Shown: positions 23,295 through 43,467, counted from the stretch's first letter. The stretch: 45,692 nt of DNA from Gemmatimonadota bacterium (GCA_046758745.1 JBHIAV010000020.1:1-45692), one strand, 5' to 3'. The notes: generated from the sequence alone by a model not told the origin. Numbers and translations are program-made.

Positions 23295-23982
23295 GCCGGG
23301 CCGTTCTGCCGGGCCCGACCCCTCGTGAACCCGGAGCGCACCGGCGGCGCGCGGTGGAACGGCGGGAGGCTTGCGCTCAGGCGGACACCAACATATCGTG
23401 ATGACCCCCCAGAGGTTCCGGGGCTGCCGGCAGGGGTGGCCGGTCCGCGAGACCGGCGCACGACCGGGGGCTCACGGAGAGTTCTTCGGCGGTGACGCAT
23501 GGCTGAGGGTGTCTCGTCAGGGAGCCGGGCGTGGGGAGTGGCGGTAGGGTGGCGGAGCGAGGGCAAGCCCGGTCCGTTCGGATGCCGCGGCAGTGGGCCG
23601 GGGCAGCGGTGGCGCGGGTACTGGTGGTCCTCCTGTGGCCGGCTTGCCGACGCTCTCGCTTCCTCCCGTTCTCGACTCCCCTCGATTCTTGCCACTCTCG
23701 TTACTCGCCGCCAGGACTCTCCCGAAGATCCACATTCCGGCTTCAGACTAGCGGTCTGCACTTCCCTCTCATCGAGGAGGCTCGAGATGGCTCACGCGCA
23801 GGTCCGGCGCGCTGTCGTTGGGAGCGCCACGTTGGTGGGCCCATGGGTCGCGCCGGCGGGCCGGGGAGGAATCGACCGCGGTGGACCCGGAGAGCGGGGT
23901 CCACCGCCGTAAGCGGAAGCCTCATTCGGAGCCGTCTCTCCGAGACGGAGTCTCGCCCATCCCAAGCAGGCAGGAGTTCTTT

Positions 23983-25773
23983 ATGAGTCGACTCAATCAT
24001 CGCGCCTGGTCGTGGGCGGTCGCTGCGAGCCTGTTGCTGCTCGTGGCCGCGCCCGCGGCGGCCCAGGACCTGATCCAGATGTCGAAGGATCCGGGTCAGT
24101 GGGTGCTACCGGGCAAGGACTACGCGTTGACCCGGTACGTCGAGCTGGGCCAGATCAACAAGTCGAACGTCGGGAACCTGAAGGTTGCCTGGACGTTTTC
24201 GACAGGCACGTTGAACGGGCTCGAGGGCGCTCCTCTGGTCATCGGCAACACGATGTATTTCGTGACCTCGTTCCCGAACATCGTGTACGCCCTGGACCTC
24301 GCCAAGGAGGGTGCCCCGATCAAGTGGCTGTACAGGCCCGATCAGGACCCCACGGTGCCCGGGGTCGCGTGCTGCGATCTGGTGAACCGCGGCGTGGCGT
24401 ACGCCGACGGCAAGATCTTCTTCACTCAGCTCGACGCGACTGTGGTGGCGCTCGATGCGAACACCGGCAAAGTGGTCTGGTCGGTGAAGCAGGGCGATCC
24501 GAAGAAGGGGATGACCATCACCGGCGCTCCGCTCGTGATCAAGGACAAGGTGATCACCGGGATCAGCGGCGGTGAGTTCGGCGTTCGCGGCTTCGTGACC
24601 GCCAACGACATCAAGACCGGCAAGCAGATCTGGCGGAAGTACAGCGCCGGCCCGGACGAGGACGTCGGGATCGGCCCGGACTTCAAACCCTTCTACAAGG
24701 ACCACCAGGGCAAGGACCTCGGGGTCACCACGTGGAAGGGCGACGAGTGGACCCGCGGAGGCGGCACGACGTGGGGCTGGTACTCCTACGATCCGGAGCT
24801 CGACCTCTTCTACTACAACACCGGTAACCCCGGCAGCTGGAATCCGGATCAGCGCCCCGGCGACAACAAGTGGTCGATGACGATGTGGGCGCGTGATCCC
24901 GACGACGGCATGGCCAAGTGGGCATATCAGATGACCCCGCACGATGCGTGGGACTACGACGGGGTCAACGAGAGCATCCTGGTCGATCAGATGATCGGTG
25001 GGAAGCTGCGGAAGACCTCGGTCCACTTCGACCGTAACGGTTTCGCGTACACGGTGGACCGGACCACCGGCGAGGTCATCGTGGCCGAGCCGTACGGCGC
25101 GGTGAACTGGGCGAAGGCGATCGATAAGAAGACAGGGCGTCCCATCGAAGATCCATCCAAGCGGACGAAGCAGGGCGAGAACACCACGAACATCTGCCCG
25201 TCCGCCATGGGCTTCAAGGACCAGCAGCCGGCCTCCTACTCGCCGCGCACGAAGCTGTTCTACGTGCCGAGCAACAACCTCTGCATGGACTATGAAGGGG
25301 TGGAGGTCAGCTACACCGCGGGCCTGCCGTACGTCGGCGCAATCGTGAAGACGTACCCGGGTCCGGGTGGGCATCGTGGCGCGCTGGTTGCCTGGGATGC
25401 CACCGAGGGCAAGAAGGTCTGGGAGGTCAAGGAGAACTTCTCCGCCTGGGGCGGCACGCTCGTGACGTCCACCGACCTGGTGTTCTACGGCACCATGGAC
25501 GGTTGGTTCAAGGCGGTCGACGCGACCAGCGGAAACGTGCTGTGGAAGTTCAAGACCGGTGCCGGGATCATCGGTGCTCCGATGACGTACATCGGCCCGG
25601 ACGGCAAGCAGTACGTGGCCATTCTGGCGGGCGTCGGTGGCTGGGCAGGCGCCACGGTCTCCCTTGATCTATCGCTGGATGACCCGACGGCCGCTCTCGG
25701 AGCGGTGAACGCGTTCGACGATCTCGGGCAGCACGTCGCCAAGAGCGGCATTCTGTTCGTGTTCTCGCTGTAA
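23983..25773 (+). CDS. xoxF: lanthanide-dependent PQQ methanol dehydrogenase
   Basis: Signal peptide; VACCDLVNRG disulfide, GISGGEFGVRG, TGNPG, HDAWDYDGVNE (D-x-D lanthanide motif), HFDRNG; followed by xoxJ and xoxG; no mxaI. Confidence 0.93.
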   Translation: MSRLNHRAWSWAVAASLLLLVAAPAAAQDLIQMSKDPGQWVLPGKDYALTRYVELGQINKSNVGNLKVAWTFSTGTLNGLEGAPLVIGNTMYFVTSFPNIVYALDLAKEGAPIKWLYRPDQDPTVPGVACCDLVNRGVAYADGKIFFTQLDATVVALDANTGKVVWSVKQGDPKKGMTITGAPLVIKDKVITGISGGEFGVRGFVTANDIKTGKQIWRKYSAGPDEDVGIGPDFKPFYKDHQGKDLGVTTWKGDEWTRGGGTTWGWYSYDPELDLFYYNTGNPGSWNPDQRPGDNKWSMTMWARDPDDGMAKWAYQMTPHDAWDYDGVNESILVDQMIGGKLRKTSVHFDRNGFAYTVDRTTGEVIVAEPYGAVNWAKAIDKKTGRPIEDPSKRTKQGENTTNICPSAMGFKDQQPASYSPRTKLFYVPSNNLCMDYEGVEVSYTAGLPYVGAIVKTYPGPGGHRGALVAWDATEGKKVWEVKENFSAWGGTLVTSTDLVFYGTMDGWFKAVDATSGNVLWKFKTGAGIIGAPMTYIGPDGKQYVAILAGVGGWAGATVSLDLSLDDPTAALGAVNAFDDLGQHVAKSGILFVFSL

Positions 25774-25890: not shown

Positions 25891-25957
25891 CTGGGCCAGG
25901 AGGATCGATGCCGCGGCTGTGGGCGTAACCGTGCGAGCCAAGGTACCGGGGGCCGGA

Positions 25958-26851
25958 ATGGGACGACGCATCGGAAAGAGAAGAGGCGCGGCGGCGCTCG
26001 CCTGCGTCCTGCTGCTCGGCGGCGGCTCCGGTTCAGCGGCGGCACAGCCGGCGAGCAGCGGAGTGGACGGGGAGAAAGAGGCGTTCCGCGTCTGCGCCGA
26101 TCCGAACAATCTGCCCTTCTCGAACCGGCGGGAGGAAGGGTTCGAGAACAAGCTCGCCGAGATGATCGCGGCGGAGCTGGGAACCAGCGTTCAATACACC
26201 TGGTGGCCCCAGCGTCGCGGCTTCATCCGAAACACCCTTCGAGAGAAGCTGTGCGACGTGGTCATGGGCGTTCCGAGCAGCTACGAGCTCGTCCTGACGA
26301 CCAAGCCCTATTATCGCTCCACGTACGTGTTCCTCTACCGGAAGGATGCGGGGCTGGAACTCCGCACGCTCGACGATCCCGTGCTGCGAGAGCTCCGGAT
26401 CGGCGTGCACATCATCGGAGATGACTACGCCAACAGTCCGCCTGCTCACGCGCTCAGCAACCGGAACATCGTGCAGAACGTCGTCGGCTACAGCGTGTAC
26501 GGGGACTACAACGAGCCGAACCCGCCGGCCAGGATCGTGGATGCGGTGGAGTCGGGCGACGTGGATGTGGCGATCGTGTGGGGACCGATCGCCGGCTACT
26601 TCTCGAAGGGACAGCCGCTGCCGCTCGAGATCGTGCCGGTGTCGCCGCAGATCGACCTGCCGTTCCTCCCCTTCGTGTTCGACGTGTCGATGGGAGTGCG
26701 CCGCGAAGACGAGGAGCTCAGGGACGGTCTGGAGCGGATTCTCGACAAGAAAGCGGCCGAGATCCGGGCGCTGCTGGAGGAGTACGGTGTACCGATCGTT
26801 GGGATCCACCGACGGTCCGCAGCTTCCCCCCGGGAGGGAGAGAGCCCGTGA
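25958..26851 (+). CDS. xoxJ: MxaJ/XoxJ periplasmic binding protein
   Basis: RVCADPNNLPFSN, GFENK, QRRGFIRNTL, CDVVMG, PYYRSTYVF, DVAIVWGPIAGY, SMGVR. Confidence 0.92.
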   Translation: MGRRIGKRRGAAALACVLLLGGGSGSAAAQPASSGVDGEKEAFRVCADPNNLPFSNRREEGFENKLAEMIAAELGTSVQYTWWPQRRGFIRNTLREKLCDVVMGVPSSYELVLTTKPYYRSTYVFLYRKDAGLELRTLDDPVLRELRIGVHIIGDDYANSPPAHALSNRNIVQNVVGYSVYGDYNEPNPPARIVDAVESGDVDVAIVWGPIAGYFSKGQPLPLEIVPVSPQIDLPFLPFVFDVSMGVRREDEELRDGLERILDKKAAEIRALLEEYGVPIVGIHRRSAASPREGESP

Positions 26852-27480
26852 TGACATGGAGATCGTGGGGCGCGTTCTTCGCCCTGCTGCTGTTCGGACT
26901 CACCGTCGGCAAGACAGCCGGCGCCCAGACGCCGGAGGCCCAGACGCCCTGCACCCAGACGCCCGAGGCTCAGACGCCGGAGGCTCAGGCGCCCTGCACC
27001 CAGACGCCGGAGCCCCAGATGCCGGAGCCCCAGACGCCGGAGGCCCAGGCACCCGAGGCTCAGACGCCGGAGGCCCAGGCACCCGAGGCTCAGACGCCGG
27101 AGGCCCAGGTGCCGGAGGCCCAGGAGCCCGAGGCTCAGACGCCCGACCAGGCGCAGGAGACGGCCGCTGGCTCCCCGGCCGAGAAGCTCAATCCGTACAC
27201 CGGCGACGAGGAGGCCATCGCCGCGGGGCGCAAGCTGTTCCTGAAGTTCAACTGCTACGGCTGCCACGGGACGCAGGGTGGAGGCGGGATGGGGAAGCCG
27301 ATCAACGACACCAGGTGGGCGTACGGCGGCGATGACGCGTCCGTGCTCGAGACGATCCGCAACGGGCGCGAGGGCGGGATGCCGGCCTTCAGGGACATCC
27401 TGACGGAGGACGAGATCTGGAAGGTGATGGCGTTTCTCCGCTCCCTGTATAAGGGCGATCCCGAAGCGATCGTCTGGTAG
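26851..27480 (+). CDS. xoxG: cytochrome c (XoxG-like) with N-terminal QTPEA-repeat linker
   Basis: Signal peptide; NPYTGD, NCYGCHG heme motif, GGGMG, GMPAF; coupled to the xoxJ stop (alternative GTG 26848). Confidence 0.88.
   Translation: MTWRSWGAFFALLLFGLTVGKTAGAQTPEAQTPCTQTPEAQTPEAQAPCTQTPEPQMPEPQTPEAQAPEAQTPEAQAPEAQTPEAQVPEAQEPEAQTPDQAQETAAGSPAEKLNPYTGDEEAIAAGRKLFLKFNCYGCHGTQGGGGMGKPINDTRWAYGGDDASVLETIRNGREGGMPAFRDILTEDEIWKVMAFLRSLYKGDPEAIVW
26926..27150 (+). repeat. 15 x 15-bp coding tandem repeat (consensus CAGACGCCGGAGGCC, QTPEA)
   Basis: Units read QTPEA QTPCT QTPEA QTPEA QAPCT QTPEP QMPEP QTPEA QAPEA QTPEA QAPEA QTPEA QVPEA QEPEA QTPDQ. Confidence 0.93.
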
Positions 27481-30959: not shown

Positions 30960-31664
30960 ATGAAAAACATAGATTCAGACCGTGCGCCCGAGGCCGGACG
31001 AAGGATCCGGCCGCCGCCCCGCTACGTGCTGGGCCTGTGGAGAGGCGCCCTGTTCTTCTTCCTGATCGCCTTCGCCGCCGAGGCCCGGGCCATCGAGGCC
31101 GAGGCTGCCGATCTGCTGGAATTGCAGGACAATGGGCCTGACGGGATGACCGACGGCTGGCGCTCGCCGTTCGGTGAGGAACGCTCCACAAGCGTCGCCG
31201 TGCCGATGGTCGTCGGGGAGCTCTTCATCATCTCCGCGCCCGTGAGCTCGATCCTCCACGAGCTGTGGCTGGAGAGTGTCGAGGTGCAGCAGGAGCGGGT
31301 CGCCTGCCTGGGCGGGTATTTCGACGAGCGCGACAACGCGGTCCACATCACCAGGGTGGACAGGGTCCCGGCCAGAGCGGACTCTCTTCGCTCGGAAGCC
31401 GGGCCGTCGCTGGCGCGGTGCGGGACGCCGATGTGGAGCGGCACCGTCCACACGCATATCGCCCTGTACCGCGGATATCCGTACGCGACGTTCTCCGTGA
31501 ACGACCGGGCTGTCATGGCACTCTGGCGGTCCAGGTGGAAGGCGGAGGGCCTCTTCTGCGTCCTCTATTCGGAGACGCTGGCATATTGCGAGTGGGGGCC
31601 GGCCTTGAGCGCCGACGTGGCGTACAACGAGACCCCCGCCATGGTGGTCAGCGCCGGGGAATAG
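30960..31664 (+). CDS. hypothetical exported protein with JAB/JAMM-like motif
   Basis: Hydrophobic N-terminus ending AEARA; ERVACLGG...GTVHTH...FSVND. Confidence 0.6.
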   Translation: MKNIDSDRAPEAGRRIRPPPRYVLGLWRGALFFFLIAFAAEARAIEAEAADLLELQDNGPDGMTDGWRSPFGEERSTSVAVPMVVGELFIISAPVSSILHELWLESVEVQQERVACLGGYFDERDNAVHITRVDRVPARADSLRSEAGPSLARCGTPMWSGTVHTHIALYRGYPYATFSVNDRAVMALWRSRWKAEGLFCVLYSETLAYCEWGPALSADVAYNETPAMVVSAGE

Positions 31665-32091
31665 CGCTCCCCCGCAGGCGTGCCCGCGCGATCGACATCG
31701 CGCTCACCAGCCGGGTCTCCACTCGGTCCGGCGAGGCGTAGTATCCTGCCAGGGAGGCGGCGTATTCGTGCGGCGCCTCAGGGAGCGGGAGCTCCCCCGC
31801 GGCGCGCAACCGGTCCAGCTCTTGCTCCAGGGCGGCCGTCCCGCGGAGCGCCTGAGCCGTCGCTGCGCCGGCCAGGAACCCTGCCACGTACGCCTCCCGG
31901 ACCTCGGAAGACCAGCTCAGGTAGTCGCGGCCGTCCAGTCGGAAGGGGTCCGACTCGCCCCGGGAGGGGATCGAGCCGAAGAACCCGGCGCCTCCGAGCC
32001 AGAGGAGCGCGGTCGCGACCGCCGCGGGACGGAAGGGGAAGGTCCGGAGTCCGAGGGCTCCGGCCCGGTGGATGTCTCGGCCGCGCCTCAC
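31648..32091 (-). CDS. hypothetical exported protein, paralog of 32088-32486
   Basis: GTG overlaps the upstream stop; signal-like segment; REAYVAGFLAGAA motif. Confidence 0.65.
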   Translation of the reverse strand: MRRGRDIHRAGALGLRTFPFRPAAVATALLWLGGAGFFGSIPSRGESDPFRLDGRDYLSWSSEVREAYVAGFLAGAATAQALRGTAALEQELDRLRAAGELPLPEAPHEYAASLAGYYASPDRVETRLVSAMSIARARLRGSAIPRR

Positions 32092-32486
32092 GGTGAGAGC
32101 GACCGGTCGATCGTGTGCAGCGCGCGGACGAGTCGGTCTCCGCGGTGGTTTTCCCAAAAATAGTGGTCGGCAAGGCGCGCCAGATAGACGTTCGGGTGAA
32201 GATCGAAGGTAAGGCGGCGTTCCTCGAGCAGGCGGTCGATCCCCGCGGCCACGGCATCGCCCGCCTTCGGGCCGCCGGCCTCGGTCCACGCTGCGCCGGC
32301 GACGAATCCTGACAGGTAAGCCTGTCGGGCGTCGGATCCGAGCTTCTGCCACTCCCGGTACCCCCACGTCAGCACATCGGTAGGCTCCATCCGGCCCCGA
32401 TATCGGGCGCCCTGGGCCGCGGAGCCCACGCTCGCCAACGCCCACGCCAGGACGGGTATGAGGGGGAGCAGCGTGCGCCTACCCAT
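32088..32486 (-). CDS. hypothetical exported protein
   Basis: Signal peptide MGRRTLLPLIPVLAWALA; RQAYLSGFVAGAA; overlaps the sulfocyanin stop. Confidence 0.7.
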   Translation of the reverse strand: MGRRTLLPLIPVLAWALASVGSAAQGARYRGRMEPTDVLTWGYREWQKLGSDARQAYLSGFVAGAAWTEAGGPKAGDAVAAGIDRLLEERRLTFDLHPNVYLARLADHYFWENHRGDRLVRALHTIDRSLSP

Positions 32487-33171
32487 CCCTGCGCATGTCC
32501 GGGACGCGTGCATCCCGCGACACCTCGAACCAGATCCACATCCCGCCCGGTCCGTGGCCCGGGACCCCGCAGTACACACGGAACCTCCCCTCGCGGTCGG
32601 CCACGAATTGAAACGTCACCGGCTTTTCCCGAGAGGAGAGACCCCCGGTGAACGCCCGCGTCGCGGCGCCTGCGAAGGCGATCCTCGCATCACGTCCCGA
32701 GAGGGGGACGGGGTCGTCCGCTTCAATGACGCTGGCGGAGTGCGGCACGTTGGCGTCGAGATTCTGGAAGGTCGCCGTGACCTTCCAGCCGAGGGGCATC
32801 ACGATCGTCGCATTGCCGGCGTAGAAGCCGTCGAAGCTCCACGCCCCGTTCACTCCGCGGTAGCCCGCCCACAGCTTGAGGTCGGCCAGCGAATCGGCGG
32901 GGTCGTAGGCGAGGAACTCGTTCACCTCCACCAGGTCCGAGACGCTCTCCTGGCTGTCGCCGGAACGGACACCATCGGCCTCCCGGTCCCGAGCCGCCTC
33001 GGCTGTAGGGGACTCGCCGGCGTCGCGCGCCTGCCCGTCCCCGGTTCCCGCGTCGGCCGACTTCCCGCCGCAGCCGCTCGCGGCGCCCCACAACAGCGCC
33101 GGAAGCACCAGACCGACCGCCGCCCTGTTGAGTACTCCTCGCAGGGGCCCTCGCGCTCCCCTCAGCCGCAT
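32479..33171 (-). CDS. sulfocyanin (SoxE)-like type-1 blue copper lipoprotein
   Basis: Lipobox-like AASGC; FDGF, VPHSA, YCGVPGHGPGGMW (His, Cys, His, Met copper ligands). Start uncertain (33171 or 33183). Confidence 0.82.
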   Translation of the reverse strand: MRLRGARGPLRGVLNRAAVGLVLPALLWGAASGCGGKSADAGTGDGQARDAGESPTAEAARDREADGVRSGDSQESVSDLVEVNEFLAYDPADSLADLKLWAGYRGVNGAWSFDGFYAGNATIVMPLGWKVTATFQNLDANVPHSASVIEADDPVPLSGRDARIAFAGAATRAFTGGLSSREKPVTFQFVADREGRFRVYCGVPGHGPGGMWIWFEVSRDARVPDMRRDG

Positions 33172-33196
33172 CCTCCGATCCAAGCTGAACGCACCG

Positions 33197-33234
33197 AAAA
33201 AACCGGGGGCAGCGTGGGACGCTGCCCCCGGTTT
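33197..33234 (-). terminator. intrinsic terminator after the second PQQ dehydrogenase
   Basis: 16-bp perfect stem AAACCGGGGGCAGCGT-GGG-ACGCTGCCCCCGGTTT; ends in T6 on the minus strand. Confidence 0.8.
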
Positions 33235-33270
33235 CCCCTACCGGGCCGGGCCCGGCGCCGCCCAAGGCCG

Positions 33271-35025
33271 CTAGCGCGCGAGGGCGAAGGTGAACACCGC
33301 GTCGCCGCGCCGGTAGCCGAGCTGGAAGTTTCCGCCGCACGCCACGGTGACGTACTGACGTCCGTCCAGCTCATACGTCATCGGAGCGGCGTTCGCTCCC
33401 GCGCCGCAGTTGAACTTCCACAGGATGTCGCCCGTCTCGGCGTCGAACGCCTCGAAGTCACCGTTCCCCTCACCCGTGAACACCAGCCCGCCCGCGGTGG
33501 CCAACAGGCCGCCCATCATCGGGTCCTCGGTCTCGTGGCTCCACGCCACGTCGCCGGTGTTGACATCCACCGCGACCACGTACCCCCCCTGGTCCTCGCC
33601 GGGGACGGCGACGAACGCGCTCCCCAGCCACAGCTTGCCCTTCTCATACGGTGAGAAGTGCGTGATGTAGTTCATCGGCTGGTGGAGGGCCGCGATGAAC
33701 TGGTAGCCAAGCTGCGGGTTGAAGGCCGTGGGCGACCACTCCGCCCCGCCGTTCGCTCCGGGGAGCATTCGCACGCCTTCCGCCGTCGGCTGGGCGAACA
33801 GGTTCTCGTGCGGCACCCAGTTCTGCGACCGGCGGATCCGCTCGCCCGTCTCCGCATCGAGCACATACGTCCACCCAGTCTTGCCGGCGTGGATCACCGC
33901 CTTCGTCCCGTCCGAGAGGCGCACCAGAGCCGCCGGGCTCGCCGCGTCGAGGTCCCACACGTCGTGCGGCAGGTACTGGTGGCACCACTTCATCGTCCCG
34001 TCGGCGATGTTGATGGCGCAGATCGACTCGGTCCACCGGTTGTCACCCGGCCGGATCGAGCCGTCCAGGTCGGGGGAGGGATTTCCGATCGACACGAAGA
34101 CGGTCCCCGTCTCGTCATCGATCGCGGGGGTCTGCCAGATGGAGCCGCCGCCCACCTTCCAGCTGTCGGCGTGCTTAGCCGAATCGGCCTTCTCTTGGGC
34201 GATGTCGCGGTTCAGGTTCTCCCCGCCCGGCGTCGTCTCGGCCCACTCGCCCCACCAGCCCCCTTCCTCCGGGGAGGGGATCGTGTGCCAGGTCCAGACC
34301 AGCGCCCCCGTCTCGGCGTCGAAGGCCTTGAGGAAGCCGCGGATCCCGTACTCGGCCCCCGCAGTGCCGATCAGGACCTTCCCCTCGTACACCGTCGGCG
34401 CCATCGTCTCGGAGTAGCCGGCCGCCGGGTCCGCGATCTGCGTCTCCCACACCTTCTCGCCGGTCCTCTGGTCGAGGGCGACGAGGCGGGCGTCCAGCGT
34501 GCCCAGGTACAGCTTGCCGTACGCGGCCGCCACGCCGCGGTTGTTGGGTCCGCAGCAGAAGATGGTCGTCTCCCCCAGCTCGTTCTCCCCCTCGTAGCGC
34601 CACAGCTCTTCCCCCGTACGGGCGTCCACGGCCATGACGTTGTCCCACGGCGTGGTGAGGTACATGACGCCGCCGAACACGAGCGGCGTGTTCTCGAAGG
34701 ACCCGAGGCGGCCCGCGCCCGTCTGGTACACCCACACCGGCACGAGCCCCGACACGTTCTGGCGATTGATCTGGTCGAGCGGCGACCAGCGCCGGTTCGT
34801 GTAGTCCTTGCCGTACATGCGCCACTCCGAGGCCTCATCCACGGCGCCCTTGAGGTCGGAGTCGCTCAGGCTGGCGAACGTGGGTGGGGCCGCCTCCTCG
34901 GCCGGCGGGGCTTCCTCCGCCGGCCTTCCCGTGTCCGCCGGTTGACAGGCGAGGCCCAGCAGCCCCGCGGCAAGCGCGGCCAGCCACCGGGTGGAACCGA
35001 CGAACTCCTGGCGTAAGCTCTCCAT
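33271..35025 (-). CDS. second PQQ-dependent alcohol dehydrogenase, lipoprotein, probably lanthanide-binding
   Basis: Lipobox LLGLAC; IFCCGPNNRG, GAEYGIRG, IGNPSPD, HDVWDLDAASP (D-x-D), PGANGGAEWSP. ATG after GAGGAGG. Confidence 0.9.
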   Translation of the reverse strand: MESLRQEFVGSTRWLAALAAGLLGLACQPADTGRPAEEAPPAEEAAPPTFASLSDSDLKGAVDEASEWRMYGKDYTNRRWSPLDQINRQNVSGLVPVWVYQTGAGRLGSFENTPLVFGGVMYLTTPWDNVMAVDARTGEELWRYEGENELGETTIFCCGPNNRGVAAAYGKLYLGTLDARLVALDQRTGEKVWETQIADPAAGYSETMAPTVYEGKVLIGTAGAEYGIRGFLKAFDAETGALVWTWHTIPSPEEGGWWGEWAETTPGGENLNRDIAQEKADSAKHADSWKVGGGSIWQTPAIDDETGTVFVSIGNPSPDLDGSIRPGDNRWTESICAINIADGTMKWCHQYLPHDVWDLDAASPAALVRLSDGTKAVIHAGKTGWTYVLDAETGERIRRSQNWVPHENLFAQPTAEGVRMLPGANGGAEWSPTAFNPQLGYQFIAALHQPMNYITHFSPYEKGKLWLGSAFVAVPGEDQGGYVVAVDVNTGDVAWSHETEDPMMGGLLATAGGLVFTGEGNGDFEAFDAETGDILWKFNCGAGANAAPMTYELDGRQYVTVACGGNFQLGYRRGDAVFTFALAR

Positions 35026-35635
35026 AAGTGCCTCCTCGGAAACGTTACCGGCGCTCGCGAACGCCCGTTCGGGCCGCCCCAACGGCCCGCGACGATGGGC
35101 GATTCGCGGAGGTCCCGGCGCGGCTGGGCAGCGGCGAGCGGCACACGGCGGGAGCCGGCGCCGATCGCACGAAAGACGCGTATGGACGATCGTCGCCTCG
35201 CAGGCGCCCGGCGTCGGACGCGTGAGCGTGGGGAAAGGACGAAGCTCGCTGTGTGGCGAGAAACAAATGCGCCGGCCTCCCAACTCGTGTTCGGGTGAAA
35301 GCGCTGGCGCGCGTGCCCCCAGGAGTCTGCCCGTAGCAACACAGGGTAACGACTTCCGCCCAGGATCGTCAACTAGCCCGGCTCTTCCGAGGCTTGACGG
35401 GCCGGCCCCTCGCCGGGAGATTTCAGCACTTCGCGCTCGGTGCCAAGGGCCCGTCTGCCGCGGCTCCGGTGATCCACGCATCGGCGGAAGCCACGCGCGA
35501 CGGGCGGGGGCCGGGCCCATCCGGCTTCTGAGGGCGCCGCCTCCAGTCACGTCCGGCGCCTTGTCCATCCGAGTGCGGAGGGCGCCGCCGGCCGTACCCG
35601 CCGCCGGCGCCGACCGAACGAAAGGAGGGGGCTCA

Positions 35636-37783
35636 ATGTCGCCAGAGGCAGTTCGAAAGATCCATTATGGCCGGCAGGCGCGTCGACTCCTCGCGTGGAT
35701 CATGCCGCATCTGGTGCTCGGCGCAGCGCCCGCGGCTCTCTCCGCTCAGGAGACCGAGCCGGCCGAGGCAGACACCACCCCGGCGGCCCGGCACCGCCTG
35801 GAGCAGATCCGGGTCACCGTCACCCGTGGAGAACGGGTCCTCACGCGCCTCCCCTACGCCGTGTCGGTGAGCACCGTCGAGGACCTTCAGAGAGGCGAGC
35901 GGAGCGTCTCGCTGGAGGAGGGTCTGAGGGCGGTGCCGGGGGTGTTCGTCCAGAACCGGAGGAACTTCTCCCTCGGCGATCGGGTGACGATCCGTGGTGT
36001 GGGCTCCCGCGCACAGTTCGGCGTTCGTGGGATCCAGATCCTGGCGGACGGCATCCCGCTGACCCTTCCCGATGGTCAGGCCGTCCTCACCAACCTCGAC
36101 TTGAGCTCGGCCGGCCGCGTGGAGGTGATCCGTGGCCCCGCCTCCGCCCTGCACGGCAACGCCGCCGGAGGCGTGCTCAGCTACTACACCGAGGATTTCG
36201 CCCCCGGCCGCCTCCAGGTGGGTCCGGACGTGACAGGGGGAAGCCACGAGTTCCTGAGCACTCGGATCCGGACCTCGGGGATCCTAGGGAGCTTCGGATA
36301 TCTCGCGAACTTCCGGCGCCTCGAGACCGACGGCTTCCGCGAGCGTGCCCACGCCGAGATGTACTCGGCCAACGTGGTGGGCCGCCAGAAGTTCTCCCCC
36401 TCCACCGAGCTCCGGGGCGTGCTCAACGTCTTCCACATGCCCTTCGGGGAGAACCCGAGCTCGCTGACGCGCGACGACGCGATGAACAACCCGGAGATGG
36501 TGCGCTCGTTCATCATCTCGCAGGGTGCGGGGGAGGAGAACACGCAGGGCCAGCTCGGGCTCGCGCTCACTCATCGGTTCGATTCGGACCATGAGATCCA
36601 GATCGCGGGGTGGGGGCTCGGCCGGAGCATCTGGAACCCGATTCCTGGCCGGATCATCGATCTCTCGCGGGACGCCGGGGGACTACGCCCGATCGTGAGC
36701 GGAACCGAGCGGTTCGGCGGCCAGCGCTCGCTCCGCTGGATCGTCGGGGCGGACGCCGCTCTGCAGAGCGACGACCGGCGCGAGCACCGGAACGAGGGGG
36801 TCGGGGAGTCCGGCGGGCGGGCGGTCGAAGGAGAGCTGCTGCAGGACCAGCGGGAGCGGGTGCTCAGCCTCGGCCCGTTCGCCGAGCTCACCCTCGGGCT
36901 GACCGACGAGTGGCGGGTCACGGTGGCCGGCCGCTACGACGTCTTCGACTTCGATGTGGACGACAAGAAGCTCGATGACGGGGACGACTCCGGCCAACGC
37001 ACTCTCACGCATTTCAGTCCGATGGTGGGGATCACCTACGCGCCCGTCGAGGAGTTCGCGGCCTACGCCAACTTCGCGACCGCCTTCGAGACCCCGACAA
37101 CGAGCGAGCTGTCGAACCGGCCCACCGGTGAGGGCGGTTTCAATCCAGACCTGGACCCGGAGACCATCGAGAGTTTCGAGGTGGGGGTGCGCGGTTGGGT
37201 CGAGGCTGCGAAGCTCCGCTACGGTGTCTCGGGATACCTGGCCACGGCCGACGACGCGCTCCTCCCGTTTCAGGGCCCGACGGAGGAGGTCTTCTTCCGC
37301 AACGCCGGGGAAGTCTCCCGCGATGGGCTCGAGCTCGAGCTCGCCTGGCTCCCGCACGCCAGCGTGGAGACGCGTGTCTCCTACACGTTCCAGGACTTCG
37401 TGCTGGAGGAGTTCGAGACGGATGAGGCGGACTTCTCAGGCAACCGGGAGCCCGGCGTTCCGCGGCACCGGGTCTTCGCGGGAGCGACCTACCGGGCCCC
37501 CTTCGGGCTGCGCTCGGAGGTCAACTTTCAGTGGGTGGATGCGTTCCTGGTGGACGACGCGAACGAGTTCTCCAACTGGTCGTCTCGCGTGGTCGACCTG
37601 CGATTCGACCTCGACCTGCGGGTCGGTCACGCCGCCGTGCAGCCGTACCTCGGGATCGACAACGTGTTCGACGAGCGGTACAACGCGTCCGTGATCCCGA
37701 ACGCGTTCCGCGACCGGTATTACGAGCCGGCGCCGGGCAGGGAGGTGTACGGAGGCCTCAGGGTCCCGGTGGGCATCCGGTAG
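35636..37783 (+). CDS. TonB-dependent receptor, YncD/PqqU-like
   Basis: IRGVGSRAQFGVRGI, DGIPLTLPDGQ, EVIRGPASALHGNAAGGV, FETPTTSELS, YYEPAPGR. ATG after AAGGAGG. Confidence 0.88.
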   Translation: MSPEAVRKIHYGRQARRLLAWIMPHLVLGAAPAALSAQETEPAEADTTPAARHRLEQIRVTVTRGERVLTRLPYAVSVSTVEDLQRGERSVSLEEGLRAVPGVFVQNRRNFSLGDRVTIRGVGSRAQFGVRGIQILADGIPLTLPDGQAVLTNLDLSSAGRVEVIRGPASALHGNAAGGVLSYYTEDFAPGRLQVGPDVTGGSHEFLSTRIRTSGILGSFGYLANFRRLETDGFRERAHAEMYSANVVGRQKFSPSTELRGVLNVFHMPFGENPSSLTRDDAMNNPEMVRSFIISQGAGEENTQGQLGLALTHRFDSDHEIQIAGWGLGRSIWNPIPGRIIDLSRDAGGLRPIVSGTERFGGQRSLRWIVGADAALQSDDRREHRNEGVGESGGRAVEGELLQDQRERVLSLGPFAELTLGLTDEWRVTVAGRYDVFDFDVDDKKLDDGDDSGQRTLTHFSPMVGITYAPVEEFAAYANFATAFETPTTSELSNRPTGEGGFNPDLDPETIESFEVGVRGWVEAAKLRYGVSGYLATADDALLPFQGPTEEVFFRNAGEVSRDGLELELAWLPHASVETRVSYTFQDFVLEEFETDEADFSGNREPGVPRHRVFAGATYRAPFGLRSEVNFQWVDAFLVDDANEFSNWSSRVVDLRFDLDLRVGHAAVQPYLGIDNVFDERYNASVIPNAFRDRYYEPAPGREVYGGLRVPVGIR

Positions 37784-37901: not shown

Positions 37902-40100
37902 TCACCGGTCGGCGTCTTGGCCGAAGTTGCGCCGCACGATGACCTTGAGCGCCCGGGCGTTGAGCGGCGAGAGGAAGCGCTCGAGCTCGCCGGTCAGCCC
38001 GTTCTCGTTGAAGGTCCCGAAGATGGGGCGGCGGGAGTCGAACACGTTGCTCACGATGCCCTCGATCTCCCACTGAGCGAAGGCCCAGCCGGCACGGACG
38101 TTCGCCACGAAATACGTGTCCAGAGGCTCGGTCTCGTTGGCCTCGTCGCCTCGCAGCCACTGCGCTCCCACCAGCCGCGCGTCGAGGCCGATGTCGAAGC
38201 CCCCCGGCAGCTCCGTCAGTCCTCCCAACTTCAGCTGGTGGTCCGGCACGAGCGGCATGCGGTCGCCGCTGTGCACGTCGTTGGGGCCTGACAGCGGGCT
38301 GTCCTCGAAGTCATCGTCCGCCCGCACGCTGAACAGCTCGGCCGCAGATCGAAAGGTGGCCCGCGTGTAGGCGTAGCCGACGTAGGCCGATAGGGGCGCA
38401 CCGAGGTCGACGCGCGCCGACAGCTCCACTCCTTCCCTACGAGTGCGCTCTACATTGCGGAAGAAGCCCTCCACCGGGGAGGCCTCCGACGGAACGAAGA
38501 AGATCTCGTCGCGCACCTCCGTGCGATACGCCGAGGCGTCGATGGCCACGGGACCGAGCGCCCAGCGCCCCCCGAGCTCGAAGGTGACCGCGGTGACGGG
38601 ATCCAGCGGAGGGTCTTCGCCCAGGGCGAAGGGCAGCGGGCAGGCGGCCTCGGGGTCGGCGCAGGCGAGCTCCAGGATGGCCGGCGCGCGGAAGCTGGCC
38701 CCCACCGAGGCGTACAGCGAGACATCCGGTTCCACGGCGATGCTCACCCCGCCACGCGGGCTCAGTCGACCGTACGTGCTCGTGGTGTCGCCCGCCGGAT
38801 CGAGGAGGTTGCGGAAGGGGATGCGCACATAGTCGTACCGGGCGCCCGCCGAGAGCGTCGTGCGCCCGACCCGTAGGTCGGCGATCGCGAAGCCCGCCAG
38901 GTCGAGGCTCGGGCTCTCGACATCGGTGGTGATCTCCCCCTCACCTTGGCCGCGCTGCTCCTCGAAGATGCGGATATCCACCCAGTTCGCAGCGGCGTCA
39001 GCGCCGAGGCGAACCGACAGGGTGCTACCGCGGAGCGGCGACGTCCAGCGCCAGTCGGCCGTGCCGCCGACGGAACGGTTGGTGGCGAAAGCCCGGACGT
39101 CGTCCTCGGGCGGCTGGTTGACGTTGAACCGCTCGCCCTCGGAGCGCCGGAAGTAGGCCCGGAGCGAGGCGCGCCCCGTCCCGATAGGCGCGTAGCCGGC
39201 GAGGGAGAACTGCTGGAGGTTGAGGTCTTCGAAGTCCCCGGCCGTGAAGTTCGTCTTCGGAGCCGACTCGAACAGGCTCTCCGGCAGGGAGCCCGCCGTC
39301 TCCGCCCGCGACTCGGCCGCGAATAGCTGTAGGGTGGCGCCGCGGGCGGCGCCGAGCCGGCCCAGGTTCAGGAAGCCGTTCCAGCTTTGCGCCCCGGTGG
39401 CGTCGCGCCATCCGTCCTCCCGTTCGTACCCGCCGCCGAGGTAGTAGTCCCACCCCCCCGACGAACGGCCGCCGAGGGAGCCCTCTGCCGAGAACGCTCC
39501 GAACGATCCGCCCGAGAGCTCGATCTCTCCGGATGGCTCCCCCCTCCCGCGGCGCGTCACAAGGTTGACCGCGCCGCCGAGCGAGTTGGGTCCGAGAAGG
39601 GAACCGGTGCCGCTCAGCAGCTCCACCCGCTCGACATGCTCCATCGGCAGCAGATCGAAGTTCACCTCCTGCGCGTCGGGCTCGTTTTGCCGAACGCCGT
39701 CCAGGAACACCGAGACGCCGGGGGGCAGGCCGAGCGTGGGCCCGACGACGAAGCCGCGGGTGCTCAGGTTCAGCTTGTAGGGCGAGCCGAGATCATCGTA
39801 GAAGGACACCCCTGCCAGCGAGGCCAGGGCGTCCGCCAGGAGGCGCGGCTCCCAGGCGTCGATCTCCCGGCCGGCGAGCACCGAGACGCGGGCCGGGACT
39901 CCGGAGGCGATTCCCGGGCCGGCCGCGGGCACGATCGAGCCGATCACCTCGATCGGCTGCAGCTGAAACGTGGCCGTATCGCGTTTCGCGGCGGTGTCGG
40001 CATCCTGGGCGACCGCCGATCGGGCCAGACCGCCCGCGATCAGGGCGATGAGGACGAAAGCCTTGGCGAATCTCCCTTCCCGGCCACCTGTCATCGTCAT
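37902..40100 (-). CDS. TonB-dependent receptor, LutH/LanA-like
   Basis: RGFVVGPTLGLPPGVSVFLDGVRQNE, VNFDLLP, GPNSLGGAV, RAPAILELACADPEAACPLP..DPPLDPV, RGDEAN. Confidence 0.88.
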   Translation of the reverse strand: MTMTGGREGRFAKAFVLIALIAGGLARSAVAQDADTAAKRDTATFQLQPIEVIGSIVPAAGPGIASGVPARVSVLAGREIDAWEPRLLADALASLAGVSFYDDLGSPYKLNLSTRGFVVGPTLGLPPGVSVFLDGVRQNEPDAQEVNFDLLPMEHVERVELLSGTGSLLGPNSLGGAVNLVTRRGRGEPSGEIELSGGSFGAFSAEGSLGGRSSGGWDYYLGGGYEREDGWRDATGAQSWNGFLNLGRLGAARGATLQLFAAESRAETAGSLPESLFESAPKTNFTAGDFEDLNLQQFSLAGYAPIGTGRASLRAYFRRSEGERFNVNQPPEDDVRAFATNRSVGGTADWRWTSPLRGSTLSVRLGADAAANWVDIRIFEEQRGQGEGEITTDVESPSLDLAGFAIADLRVGRTTLSAGARYDYVRIPFRNLLDPAGDTTSTYGRLSPRGGVSIAVEPDVSLYASVGASFRAPAILELACADPEAACPLPFALGEDPPLDPVTAVTFELGGRWALGPVAIDASAYRTEVRDEIFFVPSEASPVEGFFRNVERTRREGVELSARVDLGAPLSAYVGYAYTRATFRSAAELFSVRADDDFEDSPLSGPNDVHSGDRMPLVPDHQLKLGGLTELPGGFDIGLDARLVGAQWLRGDEANETEPLDTYFVANVRAGWAFAQWEIEGIVSNVFDSRRPIFGTFNENGLTGELERFLSPLNARALKVIVRRNFGQDADR

Positions 40101-40359: not shown

Positions 40360-41157
40360 TCAGCCTCCTCGCCGCAGGCGGATGTCACCGTTCACGGTCG
40401 AGAGCTCCAGCCGGCGTCCACCGCTCCCGATCGTTCCGCGCATGTTGCGGGCCGAGAAACGTCCGCTGATCGTGAGTGGGAAGTCGGTCTCCAGCCGTCC
40501 GTTCACCGTCCGCGCCCGGACCTCCGTGTTCGTATCGGCGGGGAGATCGAGCGTGATGCTCCCGTTCACGGTCGAGAACTCGAGCTCGTCGTCCCAATTG
40601 GCGCTCCGGAACGCCGCATCGATGGAACCGTTCACGGTCGACGCCTCCGCGAGACCGGATGTCGATACCCTGACATCTCCGTTGACCGTGCTGGCGCGCA
40701 CGTCGCCGCCCAGCGAGCTTGCCTCCACATCGCCGTTCACGGTCTGGCCGACGAAACGAACGCCGCCAGGCAAACGCACGGTGAAGTCGACCTCCACGTC
40801 GTTGTCGTTGGCGCTCAGGTGAGCGGCGCTTCCGGGAGCGCACTTGTTCCGGCGGCCCTTCCTCTTATCCGGGTACACGGCGCAGATCGTCACGCCGCCA
40901 GAGTGCTCCACCACCTCGATCTTCACCTCCGCCGCATCGCTTTTCCTTCCGCGCTTGCGGGCGAGCACCTCTACGTCGCCGCCGGATGCGGACGCGGCCC
41001 GTATGTCTCCGTTGATTCCTTTGACCTCGACGGTCTTCCCCCTCGCCACCCGCCCGCTCCAGCGGAACTCCTGCACGAGGGCGCCTTCCACGCCGCGGAT
41101 GCCGAAGTTTCCCGATGCGGCGACAGCGATGAGACCTGCGAGGGAGAGCATTCGCAT
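40360..41157 (-). CDS. DUF4097 beta-strand-repeat exported protein
   Basis: Repeated TVNGD/TVNGS motifs; signal peptide. Confidence 0.85.
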   Translation of the reverse strand: MRMLSLAGLIAVAASGNFGIRGVEGALVQEFRWSGRVARGKTVEVKGINGDIRAASASGGDVEVLARKRGRKSDAAEVKIEVVEHSGGVTICAVYPDKRKGRRNKCAPGSAAHLSANDNDVEVDFTVRLPGGVRFVGQTVNGDVEASSLGGDVRASTVNGDVRVSTSGLAEASTVNGSIDAAFRSANWDDELEFSTVNGSITLDLPADTNTEVRARTVNGRLETDFPLTISGRFSARNMRGTIGSGGRRLELSTVNGDIRLRRGG

Positions 41158-41244
41158 ATTCCGTTTCCTCCTATCCTTCCGCCCGCTCTGTCATTCTATT
41201 GTTTCGGCCCGCCGCTCTGGCCTCACCCGCGCCCCTCCGGGACC

Positions 41245-42111
41245 TCACGGACAGCTCCCGGCCGGCTGCACCAGCTCGATCAGGCCATCGAACGATTCGA
41301 GCTCCACCAGCGCCTTTCCGGTCCCGAGAGTGAACGAGAAGCGCTTGCTGTCAATCGGCCCATCGAAGCGGATCGGGCAGGGCGCCGAGAACTCGCCGTC
41401 GAAGGTGGCCACGGAAACGCGCGCGTTGACCCGGCCCGTAACGGCCACGCGTAGGTCCCCGTCGTGCGTCGAGAGGAAGTAGCGCCCCCCGTCCTGGATC
41501 GTGCCGTCGTACAGGATGTCGCCCTCCACCGTCGCGACGTCCACGTTTCCGGAGTCCACGCGTTCCAGCGTGATATCGCCGTCCACCCCCTGCACGTTGA
41601 TGTCGCCTTCAACATCCCGGATCTCGACGTATCCGTCCACTGCATTCACCGAGATCTTGCCGCGCGCCCCCTCGAGGGTGATGTCCCCGTCCACGGATTG
41701 GAGGGAGACGAGCCCGTTCCCGCCGCGTACGTCGATGGAGCCCTCCACCGATTGGACCGACACATCGGCCCCCACGCCGTCCAGCGAGACCGTCACTTCG
41801 ACGCCATGGATCTCGATGGCCATAGACCGCGGGATGGTGAGGTCGAAGTTCGCGACCGAAGGCCCCCCATATCGCGATTCGACCTCGAGGGTAACCGTCG
41901 AGCCCGAGGTCAGGACGTCGACCCGGTCGCGGCTGCCATGATCGACTCGTGCCCGGACCGCCTCGCGCTTCCACGTGTGGATGTCCACCAATCCGGCCAC
42001 GTTGTGCAAAGAGAGGCGGCCGTTCGGCGGCACCGAGAAGGTGGTGTCCGTCTGCTGCGCCAGGGCCAGGGTCGCCGTCAGCGCGGCCGCGAGGTTGATC
42101 AGCATCGGCAT
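41245..42111 (-). CDS. DUF4097 beta-strand-repeat exported protein
   Basis: Repeated SVEG/SVDGDI motifs; signal peptide; part of the ECF operon. Confidence 0.85.
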   Translation of the reverse strand: MPMLINLAAALTATLALAQQTDTTFSVPPNGRLSLHNVAGLVDIHTWKREAVRARVDHGSRDRVDVLTSGSTVTLEVESRYGGPSVANFDLTIPRSMAIEIHGVEVTVSLDGVGADVSVQSVEGSIDVRGGNGLVSLQSVDGDITLEGARGKISVNAVDGYVEIRDVEGDINVQGVDGDITLERVDSGNVDVATVEGDILYDGTIQDGGRYFLSTHDGDLRVAVTGRVNARVSVATFDGEFSAPCPIRFDGPIDSKRFSFTLGTGKALVELESFDGLIELVQPAGSCP

Positions 42112-42164
42112 CTATCCTTATCTCGTTCCTTCGCGAATCCGTTTCGCTTCATGCGCCGGCTCGC

Positions 42165-42881
42165 TCACGTGCGGGCCAGCGCGTTCGCTCGCCGCAGAAG
42201 CTCCACCTTTCGCGCCATCGCCTGACTCAGGTGCCGATTCAGGTAGGCGTTGGCCGGGTCGGCCTGCAGCGCCCGTCGCGCCTGTTCGATCGCCCCGTCG
42301 ATGGTGGCCAGGCTCTTCTCGATGATCGCGACGGTAGCGGGATCGAGCCGCTCCTTCCCGACGGTCAGCCTGAGCTCCAGCTCACGGATCGCGGCCTCGT
42401 ACGCCGCGGCGGGCGAAGAGGACGTCGAGATGAGGGCCGCGGGCCGCCGCCCCTCTCCCGCCTGGCCGACCCCCGCAGCTCCCGAGCCGCGACCGAACCA
42501 CACGGCGCTCCCGCCGAGGAGAAGGAAGGCCACCGCTGCCGCGACGAGCTGGGGAACGGTGAGGGCGACCCTTCGGCGTGCGGCGCGCGCCGCGCGCTGG
42601 GCCGGGAGATCGACGATTGCGGATGACCCGCCGCCGGCCACGGCGGCCCGGGCAGTCCCTGCGGAGGACGCCGCTAGACGCGCGACGATTCCCGGCCACA
42701 GGTCCGTCACCGGGGGGCGGTCTTCGACAGCGGCCGCCTCGCGCTTCACCGCCCGCAGAGCCTCGAGCGTCCGCCCGCAAGCGACGCATCCGCTCAGGTG
42801 CGTCTCGAGGGCCTGGCGATCCGCCACAGACAGCTCCTCGTCCAGATACTCCGAAAGCCGCTCCATCCACGGGTCGCTCAT
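42165..42881 (-). CDS. zf-HC2 zinc-binding anti-sigma factor
   Basis: LSEYLD...HLSGCVAC (HxxxCxxC) and one TM segment; follows the ECF sigma. Alternative GTG 42893. Confidence 0.88.
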   Translation of the reverse strand: MSDPWMERLSEYLDEELSVADRQALETHLSGCVACGRTLEALRAVKREAAAVEDRPPVTDLWPGIVARLAASSAGTARAAVAGGGSSAIVDLPAQRAARAARRRVALTVPQLVAAAVAFLLLGGSAVWFGRGSGAAGVGQAGEGRRPAALISTSSSPAAAYEAAIRELELRLTVGKERLDPATVAIIEKSLATIDGAIEQARRALQADPANAYLNRHLSQAMARKVELLRRANALART

Positions 42882-42894
42882 CTCTCGCTCCACC

Positions 42895-43467
42895 TCATGT
42901 TGATAGGTACTCCCGCATCATCATCCGGGCGCGATGGAGCTGCGCCTTCGTGGTCCCGGTCGTCACGCCCAGCAATTCCGCGATCTCCGCGTGCTTGTAG
43001 CCCTCCACGTCGTGCAGCACCAAGACCTGTCTGGCCCCGGGCGGGAGGCGCTCGATGCCGGCCTCGAAGTCCACCGCCAGCTCGGTGTGAGCGGGCCGCA
43101 CCGAGAGACGGCCGATCGCCGCCTCGCCGTCGGCCGCGAAGCGCTCCCGTCGGATGCCCAGCCTCTTCCTCCGGGCGAGGATCACGTTGACGGCCAGCCG
43201 ATGCAGCCAGGTACCGAACGTCGAGTCGCCCCGGAAGGTGCCGAGCTTCTCCCAGGTGCGTACGAAGACATCCTGCGTCACCTCGTCGGCCAGATCGGCG
43301 TCGAGCATCCGCCGGCACAGGCTGTGGATCCGGGCCACGTGCCGCCCGTACAGTCGCTCGAACGCCGGCAGGTCGCCTCGCGCCGCCTGGTGTGCATCCG
43401 CGGTGTCGTCCGGGACGCTCCTCGTCTGGTCGATCGGCTCCCTCGCCAAGGCGGTCCGCATCTCCAT
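42895..43467 (-). CDS. ECF RNA polymerase sigma factor
   Basis: GDLPAFERLY, ADEVTQDVF, FGTWLHRLAVN, LHDVEGYKHAEIA, TTKAQLHRAR. Confidence 0.93.
   Translation of the reverse strand: MEMRTALAREPIDQTRSVPDDTADAHQAARGDLPAFERLYGRHVARIHSLCRRMLDADLADEVTQDVFVRTWEKLGTFRGDSTFGTWLHRLAVNVILARRKRLGIRRERFAADGEAAIGRLSVRPAHTELAVDFEAGIERLPPGARQVLVLHDVEGYKHAEIAELLGVTTGTTKAQLHRARMMMREYLST

Follow-up and report, generated by a model that had tools for sequence, protein, structure and literature searches.

A D-x-D PQQ dehydrogenase and a type-1 copper protein in one operon: a candidate periplasmic oxidation module in Gemmatimonadota and Rokubacteria

To our knowledge, all characterized lanthanide-dependent pyrroloquinoline quinone (PQQ) dehydrogenases pass their electrons to c-type cytochromes. 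A 45,692-nt contig of a Gemmatimonadota bacterium (GCA_046758745.1 JBHIAV010000020.1:1-45692), analyzed here as a whole and referred to as the window, raises the question of whether a copper protein could take that place: a PQQ dehydrogenase gene with the D-x-D motif is followed there by a gene for a type-1 copper protein (cupredoxin). The original prediction, made from the DNA sequence, described a lipid-anchored dehydrogenase paired with a sulfocyanin-type protein in a distinct lanthanide-PQQ to copper electron chain. In the comparisons described here the balance tips modestly toward a four-gene periplasmic oxidation module, in which the D-x-D PQQ dehydrogenase would deliver electrons to the type-1 copper protein.

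The four genes form an operon on the minus strand, at 31648-35025:

33271-35025, minus strand: PQQ-dependent dehydrogenase, 584 aa, matching PF01011 and TIGR03075
32479-33183, minus strand: SoxE-domain type-1 cupredoxin, 234 aa, matching PF06525
32088-32486, minus strand: SM1, exported or anchored, all-helical, 132 aa, recognized with a family hidden Markov model
31648-32091, minus strand: SM2, a paralog of SM1 (29% identity), likely GTG start read from the DNA

Window genes were selected on third-position G+C, with family libraries as a further check; overall G+C is about 69%. The dehydrogenase and cupredoxin genes are separated by a gap of 87 nt, and the latter starts with TTG, with a Met five codons in. 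Between the SM1 start and the cupredoxin stop there is an 8-nt overlap, and the likely GTG start of SM2 overlaps the SM1 stop by 4 nt (GTGA); the cupredoxin gene is thus predicted to be translationally coupled to those downstream. Only the first two genes were in the original prediction, which was right that this operon encodes no cytochrome c: there is no CxxCH in ORFs of at least 50 aa within 31648-35025. A promoter and terminator scan of 31300-35800 gave no promoter-like and one terminator-like site, not above shuffled sequence. The sequencing runs listed as containing this stretch are four DNA runs from a single study, with no RNA run among them.

The arrangement was compared across relatives, using 40 loci from the phylum (mostly one, sometimes two or three per genus code) and 80 from a species-wide scan with one genome per species, or 120 in all, with genes in the relatives called ad hoc from third-position G+C and motifs. 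The order dehydrogenase-cupredoxin recurs in 32 of the 120, far above chance. Within the phylum, the cupredoxin gene is directly downstream and on the same strand in 20 loci (18 genus codes), directly upstream in one, and on the opposite strand, about 4.1 kb upstream, in two; the fetched stretch has none in the other 17. Among the species-wide loci 12 have it directly downstream and five on the opposite strand, 2.7-4.4 kb upstream, while 63 have none. A tree of 120 members (FastTree, rooted on the XoxF also encoded in the window, with the frameshifted L059 left out) separates these loci into groups that differ in what follows the dehydrogenase:

Rokubacteria/Methylomirabilota-type clade, 4 rows: cupredoxin 4, di-heme cytochrome 0, neither 0, too short 0
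Gemmatimonadota clade including the window, 54 rows: cupredoxin 27, di-heme cytochrome 0, neither 24, too short 3
Proteobacterial clade (with one Acidobacteriota row), 56 rows: cupredoxin 0, di-heme cytochrome 48, neither 4, too short 4
Basal rows, 6: cupredoxin 1, di-heme cytochrome 0, neither 5, too short 0

Three pairs of Gemmatimonadota rows are from the same contig (L047 and L078, L049 and L080, L070 and L073), so that the counts become 25, 23, and 3 of 51 distinct. The proteobacterial downstream ORF is 210-260 codons long, contains CxxCH twice, and begins no more than about 300 nt away on the same strand. All five of those tested have cytochrome c domains, in three cases as two separately scored stretches. 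Cupredoxin and di-heme genes never occur together in any of the 120 rows. Such a choice of one carrier or the other, in the same slot and on the same strand, would be expected of a slot for the enzyme's electron acceptor in which lineages have exchanged the carrier, and this one-for-one swap is the main reason to regard the cupredoxin as the probable direct acceptor. Conservation of the pair across two phyla, in the slot that holds the di-heme gene of the sister clade, gives good indirect support to a PQQ-to-copper chain. The distinct pairing originally proposed is borne out to that extent, and falls short in the roughly half of Gemmatimonadota orthologs that have no adjacent cupredoxin gene. 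At one locus with the pair, a divergent 820-aa ORF lies upstream, with eight CxxCH motifs and C-terminal tetratricopeptide (TPR) repeats (L032:10454-12913, plus strand).

The dehydrogenase scores 295.9 bits with PF01011 (cut-off 26.7) and 484.6 bits with TIGR03075 (PQQ-dependent dehydrogenases, methanol/ethanol family), marginally above the cut-off of 480.05. Its best solved relative is PedH (6zcv; 306 bits, E 3e-90), with about one third of aligned residues identical as read from the HMMER alignment. The extra Asp that had been noticed in WDLDAAS holds up there: HDVWDLDAASP pairs residue for residue with HDGWDFDGVNE, the D-x-D segment of PedH. Other pairs in the same alignment are FCCGPNNRG with PCCDVINRG, GAEYGIRG with GGEFGVVG, and GNPSP with GNPAP. 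The enzyme belongs to the eight-bladed PQQ propeller fold class, and its site residues are the vicinal Cys157-Cys158, Glu225, Asn315, the catalytic Asp358, and the extra Asp360. Cys157-Cys158 and Asn315 are kept in all of 114 family members, Glu225 in 112 (Asp in two), Asp358 in 113 (Gly in L053), and Asp360 in 113 (Ala, the MxaF-type residue, in L054); by motif, the whole family would be of lanthanide type. The two exceptional sequences are basal, and in each case a TPR protein follows rather than a redox carrier (L053:8001-9689, minus strand, with WGLD and Gly at the catalytic Asp; L054:7998-9713, plus strand, with WDLA and Ala at the lanthanide Asp). Two further homologs may be pseudogenes or assembly errors: a proteobacterial one with an in-frame stop (L108:5001-6752, plus strand), and a Gemmatimonadota ortholog split over two frames (L059:7387-9089, plus strand).

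Similarity to XoxF structures is lower, at 231-281 bits, compared to 769 bits between the window XoxF and 4mae, and the two window enzymes are 35% identical. The tree places the dehydrogenase family in a clade separate from XoxF. Assignment to XoxF clades 1-5 was rejected because of these low scores and the presence of cupredoxin, SM1, and SM2 genes in place of xoxJ and xoxG; XoxF3 in particular was rejected for low similarity to all XoxF structures. The enzyme appears instead to represent a separate D-x-D family, outside XoxF and MxaF and not close to ExaA/PedH. Homologs at E <= 1e-90 are present in 99 of 401 sampled genomes of the phylum but, within the window's own family, in only three of 30, and weakly there (the 401-genome tallies include genomes G182 and G057). 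By best tblastn segment, relatives at 55-61% identity are from Gemmatimonadota, Rokubacteria/Methylomirabilota, and a few metagenome-assembled genomes (MAGs) under other labels, and those at 47-55% are from Alpha- and Betaproteobacteria plus one Acidobacteriota MAG. Cultivated proteobacterial members include Paraburkholderia, Bradyrhizobium erythrophlei, Methyloceanibacter, Trinickia, and Lichenibacterium. Where PQQ-dehydrogenase ORFs of the phylum are long, the fusion partner is a PMT-like membrane domain or Peptidase_M28 and not a cupredoxin. Examples are L152:2532-6188 (minus strand, 1219 aa), with an N-terminal PMT-like membrane domain of glycosyltransferase type, and L153:760-3963 (minus strand, 1068 aa), with C-terminal Peptidase_M28.

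The copper protein matches the Pfam SoxE domain (PF06525) with 43.1 bits against a cut-off of 21. Its copper-site sequence, PHSA...CGVPGHGPGGM, supplies the ligands His148, Cys205, His210, and Met215, consistent with the earlier description of a complete set. In an alignment of the window protein with 30 cupredoxins encoded directly after orthologous dehydrogenases, the first three are invariant (31 of 31) and Met215 is present in 30, with Gln in L033; Gln is a known alternative axial ligand of type-1 copper. AlphaFold2 run on this alignment gave a beta-sandwich at residues 86-234, with pLDDT (predicted local distance difference test) values mostly 88-98 in the block, and disorder at residues 1-85 (pLDDT ~50). 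Against the PDB, the top Foldseek match was rusticyanin (1rcy; E 2e-7, TM score 0.57 by target, 20% identity), followed by CuA and nitrite-reductase cupredoxin domains. The term "sulfocyanin-type" is apt at the level of the Pfam domain and no further: the score with the sulfocyanin equivalog TIGR03094 is 39.3 bits against a cut-off of 168.4, and that with the rusticyanin equivalog TIGR03095 is 17.2 against 146.7. Nor is there a SoxM-type oxidase cluster beside the gene, its neighbors being the PQQ dehydrogenase, SM1, SM2, and a TonB receptor. A sulfocyanin ortholog was rejected on the grounds of the failed equivalog and the lack of SoxM-oxidase context, and the protein is best described as a predicted SoxE-domain type-1 cupredoxin.

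Cupredoxin homologs are found in 166 of the 401 genomes and, within the window's own family, in 27 of 30, compared to 99 and three, respectively, for the dehydrogenase. Three copies from that family (L155-L157) are located among genes for rho, proline dehydrogenase, and short-chain dehydrogenase/reductase; the copper-site motifs CPVPAHAVTGM and CYIPAHAATGM can be read in L156 and L157. In the window's genome (G000, 87% complete) only the operon copy was seen. Because it is widespread in the phylum, with some copies in housekeeping neighborhoods, the SoxE-type cupredoxin fold probably serves also as a general carrier in these bacteria.

The original prediction of lipid anchors may apply to the window and extends poorly to the family. 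On reading, the dehydrogenase N-terminus MESLRQEFVGSTRWLAALAAGLLGLAC has a lipobox-like LLGLAC, in line with the lipobox that had been pointed out, followed by a Pro/Ala/Glu-rich linker. The cupredoxin signal ends in WGAASGC, where AASGC likewise fits, by reading, a loose lipobox pattern, and about 50 residues of acidic linker, rich in Gly and Ala, separate it from the copper domain. Both proteins in this genome therefore seem to be lipid-anchored through long linkers. Most orthologous dehydrogenases have signal peptides ending in AxA|Q (e.g., ...AIAQEQVET); the window's enzyme and those of the divergent L053, L054, L056, L057, L058, and L064 have lipobox-like Cys ends. The loose pattern fits eight of 32 adjacent cupredoxins, most orthologs again having AxA|Q; the convincing cases are L031, L033, L049/L080 (the same contig), and two Rokubacteria fusions. 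L031 and L033 are the window's closest relatives and also have long tethers. Since most orthologs have AxA|Q signals, membrane tethering is probably a local variation rather than a property of the system.

Neither Pfam nor NCBIfam yields a match for SM1. By SM1 profile, a homolog is located just downstream of the dehydrogenase or cupredoxin gene in 34 loci besides the window, all from Gemmatimonadota/Rokubacteria groups and none from the proteobacterial clade. In two Rokubacteria MAGs (L075:6478-7524 and L090:6481-7467) the SM1 domain is fused C-terminally to the cupredoxin, with signal/lipobox, cupredoxin (CGVTGHGVAGM), linker, and SM1 domain in a single open frame. This fusion suggests that SM1 works with the cupredoxin. 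The conserved motifs are DGxxW...AYxxGFLAGA and LRFPFAPxVY...YWWENH, and no conserved Cys, His, or Met is evident in the SM1 alignment. The AlphaFold2 model is a small helical bundle (pLDDT 86). Its VIA matches, HdeA (Z 6.6) and HdeB (Z 5.3), are too weak to mean more than a small periplasmic helical bundle, and its neighbors in the ESM Atlas are hypothetical proteins. SM1 and SM2 belong to a family of small exported helical proteins without a database family. In many relatives the cassette is followed by a porin-like gene of 400-490 codons, without a Pfam match and with the N-terminus '...AQGLTMQMSNGWNFSFSGNVNAF' (for example L037:5989-7386, minus strand; L040:10111-11580, plus strand; and L034:10715-11926, plus strand); tblastn found none in the window.

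The surroundings of the operon bear on its possible substrate and electron acceptors. The window is contig C20 of a 3.08 Mb genome in 130 contigs with an estimated completeness of 87.4%, and the family library scan identified a methylotrophy and autotrophy island at 1-23300. The island and the other genes considered here are as follows:

Within 1-23300: tetrahydromethanopterin (H4MPT)-linked formaldehyde oxidation, with Fae, Mpt_N methylene-H4MPT dehydrogenase, FTR, GXGXG, and formyltransferase/hydrolase subunits
Within 1-23300, also in the formaldehyde oxidation set: amidohydrolase and molybdopterin-like subunits, and cofactor genes of ATP-grasp and CitG-like kinds
Within 1-23300, beside that set: genes for RuBisCO large subunit, phosphoribulokinase, transketolase, and a transaldolase-family protein
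23752-25770, plus strand: xoxF, 769 bits to the XoxF structure 4mae
25919-26851, plus strand: xoxJ, TIGR03871 with 313.7 bits, above the cut-off
About 26854-27480, plus strand: xoxG-like monoheme cytochrome c, PF13442/PF00034, TIGR03872 with 67.5 bits, below the cut-off
35636-37783, plus strand: TonB-dependent receptor, plug and barrel Pfam domains

The xoxG-like gene encodes the only c-type cytochrome of the window. Among ORFs of at least 50 aa just two CxxCH motifs were found, one in this gene and the other in a non-coding frame inside xoxF. The plus-strand xoxFJG set continues to 29880 with a pair of "PQQ-dependent catabolism-associated" proteins, a substrate-binding protein that stays below the TIGR03863 cut-off and a beta-propeller protein that clears the one for TIGR03866. 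The window XoxF and the 33271-35025 enzyme are the only PQQ dehydrogenases in the genome, which makes PQQ, with pqqC and pqqE on contig C47, and has four genes for heme-copper oxidase subunit I. The TonB-dependent receptor gene and the dehydrogenase gene are divergently transcribed, with about 610 bp between them. Among NCBIfam models the receptor matches PqqU best (NF041535; 298.7 bits along almost the full model, under the cut-off of 1200), and homologous receptors adjoin the dehydrogenase in L031, L034, L039, L059, L062, and L071. The cargo of the window receptor could be PQQ, a lanthanide chelate, or something else. A second TonB-dependent receptor gene is on the same flank at 37902-40100 (minus strand). 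The stretch 40363-43512 (minus strand) encodes, in a row, an ECF sigma factor, an anti-sigma factor of the zf-HC2 kind, and a pair of DUF4097 "toastrack" proteins. A LuxR-type two-component pair is located between the formaldehyde-oxidation and the RuBisCO-side genes of the island.

In the mechanism proposed here, an alcohol or aldehyde would reduce PQQ at a metal site that probably holds a lanthanide, a C1 or short-chain substrate being plausible from the methylotrophy setting. The type-1 copper protein would then re-oxidize PQQH2 in two one-electron steps and pass the electrons to one of the genome's heme-copper oxidases as the likely terminal acceptor. In the proteobacterial sister clade the carrier's job would be done by a dedicated di-heme cytochrome c from the same slot, and in Gemmatimonadota and Rokubacteria a cupredoxin, of a kind that these phyla use widely, would have taken over as carrier. 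Gene content, motifs, fold, and conserved synteny are what the comparisons show, and the metal, the substrate, direct electron transfer, and the terminal acceptor are inferred from them.

Known systems resemble the module in some respects and differ from it in others. PedH and other ExaF-type enzymes (6zcv) share the eight-bladed PQQ propeller, the vicinal Cys-Cys, the Glu/Asn/Asp ligands, and D-x-D, but the match is moderate, and while the electron acceptor of PedH is cytochrome c550, the carrier adjacent to the window enzyme is a cupredoxin; the window enzyme, moreover, seems to be lipid-anchored. XoxF with XoxJ and XoxG (4mae, 6oc5, 6dam) is of the same superfamily, with the lanthanide ligand set, and a true xoxFJG is found in the same island, but the operon of the window enzyme has neither xoxJ nor xoxG and the enzyme falls in a separate clade. 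The properties of XoxG are thought to be tuned to its lanthanide enzyme. The proteobacterial sister clade (example loci in Paraburkholderia, Bradyrhizobium erythrophlei, Methyloceanibacter, and Lichenibacterium) has 47-55% identity, with a D-x-D family enzyme and a small redox carrier gene directly downstream, but the carrier is a class I di-heme cytochrome c, and SM1 and the porin-like gene are missing; the literature searched yielded no characterization of this clade. Quinoprotein electrons leave through type-1 blue copper in the pairs type II quinohemoprotein alcohol dehydrogenase (ADH)/azurin and methylamine dehydrogenase/amicyanin, in the latter of which amicyanin takes electrons from a tryptophan tryptophylquinone (TTQ) enzyme. 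Neither enzyme is of the D-x-D type and neither copper protein is SoxE-type; in addition, ADH IIB first uses a fused heme domain of its own, and the cofactor of methylamine dehydrogenase is TTQ, not PQQ. The sulfocyanin (SoxE) of Sulfolobales shares with the window protein the Pfam domain, the type-1 site of His/Cys/His/Met, and perhaps the membrane tethering at the N-terminus, and Acidithiobacillus rusticyanin is the nearest solved fold, but the window cupredoxin fails the equivalog models of both, has a bacterial host, and is found without a SoxM oxidase or iron-oxidation context.

Several observations count against direct transfer to a dedicated copper protein. The cupredoxin family is far wider than the dehydrogenase family and may be a general carrier, the xoxG-like cytochrome is encoded only about 5 kb away, and synteny indicates linkage, not contact. 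A fused dehydrogenase-cupredoxin protein was not found among cupredoxin-domain proteins of at least 411 aa, although this is weak evidence. Of the 54 Gemmatimonadota rows, 24 have no directly downstream cupredoxin gene and three more are too short; with half of the Gemmatimonadota orthologs lacking an adjacent one, a copper acceptor is not obligatory for the family, and these enzymes must use another. In L037, L040, L042, L055, L060, L061, L064, and L070 the dehydrogenase is instead 2-5 kb from xoxF. There is a xoxJ beside xoxF in seven of these (the fetched L037 stretch cuts xoxF short), a monoheme cytochrome ORF follows xoxJ in six of the eight, and in such loci the cytochrome may serve both enzymes. 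The D-x-D motif predicts lanthanide use without proving it, and the tree is from FastTree only, with ad hoc gene calls for the relatives and the window row on a long branch (0.45).

Some of these observations fit a different route, in which the dehydrogenase reduces the xoxG-like cytochrome c and the cupredoxin is a later, general shuttle to the oxidase, much as cytochrome cH is the shuttle to the oxidase in classical methylotrophs. The xoxG-like gene is in the same window (~26854-27480), orthologs without a cupredoxin often adjoin xoxF-xoxJ-cytochrome clusters, and the phylum carries SoxE-type cupredoxins widely, including at sites with no PQQ gene nearby. We nevertheless consider this route unlikely, if still worth keeping in mind, because in 48 of 56 sister-clade rows the cupredoxin's slot holds a dedicated di-heme cytochrome, which points to the slot as that of the direct partner, and because no close XoxF homolog (at least 57% identity to the window XoxF) is present in the fetched flanks of the other 32 cupredoxin-bearing loci. 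A cupredoxin with an unrelated job, in iron oxidation or copper handling, and adjacent only through a shared periplasmic regulon, would agree with rusticyanin, an iron-oxidation carrier, as the nearest solved fold, and with the description of sulfocyanin genes in marine Gemmatimonadota as a putative iron oxidase in a genome survey (PMC11316326). Against this are the tight same-strand gene order kept in two phyla, the one-for-one exchange with cytochrome c, the predicted translational coupling to the downstream genes, and a library scan of the window in which no iron-oxidation genes turned up, although no search was aimed at them; of the explanations weighed here it is the one given least credence, and seems very improbable. 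The enzyme itself might be inactive or not lanthanide-dependent, with D-x-D inherited and calcium or another metal serving instead. The lanthanide type of the family is assigned by motif, the TIGR03075 cut-off is only just cleared, and metal use does not track clade in some PQQ-ADH types, according to a preprint (10.64898/2026.07.10.737718). But Asp360 is kept in 113 of 114 members with an MxaF-type Ala as the lone exception, which suggests selection at this position; the Cys-Cys and the remaining ligands are intact; a TonB receptor is divergently encoded next door in the window and adjoins the enzyme in six relatives; and the genome makes PQQ. This explanation is accordingly rated as distinctly improbable.

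Transfer from the D-x-D PQQ dehydrogenase to the type-1 copper protein is thus best seen as a solid, testable comparative-genomic hypothesis, not as a demonstrated pathway. A more specific form of it would be a heme-free periplasmic alcohol oxidation in Gemmatimonadota and Rokubacteria, with direct reduction of a dedicated cupredoxin, assistance by SM1, and one-for-one carrier exchange between lineages; this can be put forward only tentatively, as somewhat short of an even chance.

Parts of the scheme have precedents in the literature. Azurin is given as the natural acceptor of type II PQQ-ADH in a review (PMC8348568), and a route from a PQQ dehydrogenase to blue copper has been hypothesized for Thaumarchaeota lacking cytochrome c (PMC7300363). 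The xoxF systems of Gemmatimonadetes and Acidobacteria are described with cytochromes, XoxJ, small hypothetical proteins, and transporters in Voutsinos 2024 (PMC10875860), in the main text of which the word "cupredoxin" does not occur. Type 8 PQQ-ADH and XoxF3 are said to be common in species from several soil phyla, Gemmatimonadota among them, in the preprint cited above (10.64898/2026.07.10.737718). Neither an operon of a D-x-D PQQ dehydrogenase with a cupredoxin nor the alternation of di-heme cytochrome and cupredoxin is described in the open PMC and bioRxiv literature searched, a scope exclusive of supplements and subscription journals.

The alternating carrier slot offers a natural comparison for acceptor choice, redox potential, and docking in these enzymes, and draws attention to two unstudied parts, the SM1 family and the enzyme family itself, which has cultivable members in Paraburkholderia and Bradyrhizobium. 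A further implication is a need for copper where abundant phyla of soil and sediment carry out rare-earth-dependent alcohol oxidation. The alternation also advises caution in reading metagenomic SoxE-type genes as iron oxidases: if the heme-free chain set out above is correct, many of the "sulfocyanin" markers of iron oxidation in these phyla would mark alcohol oxidation instead.

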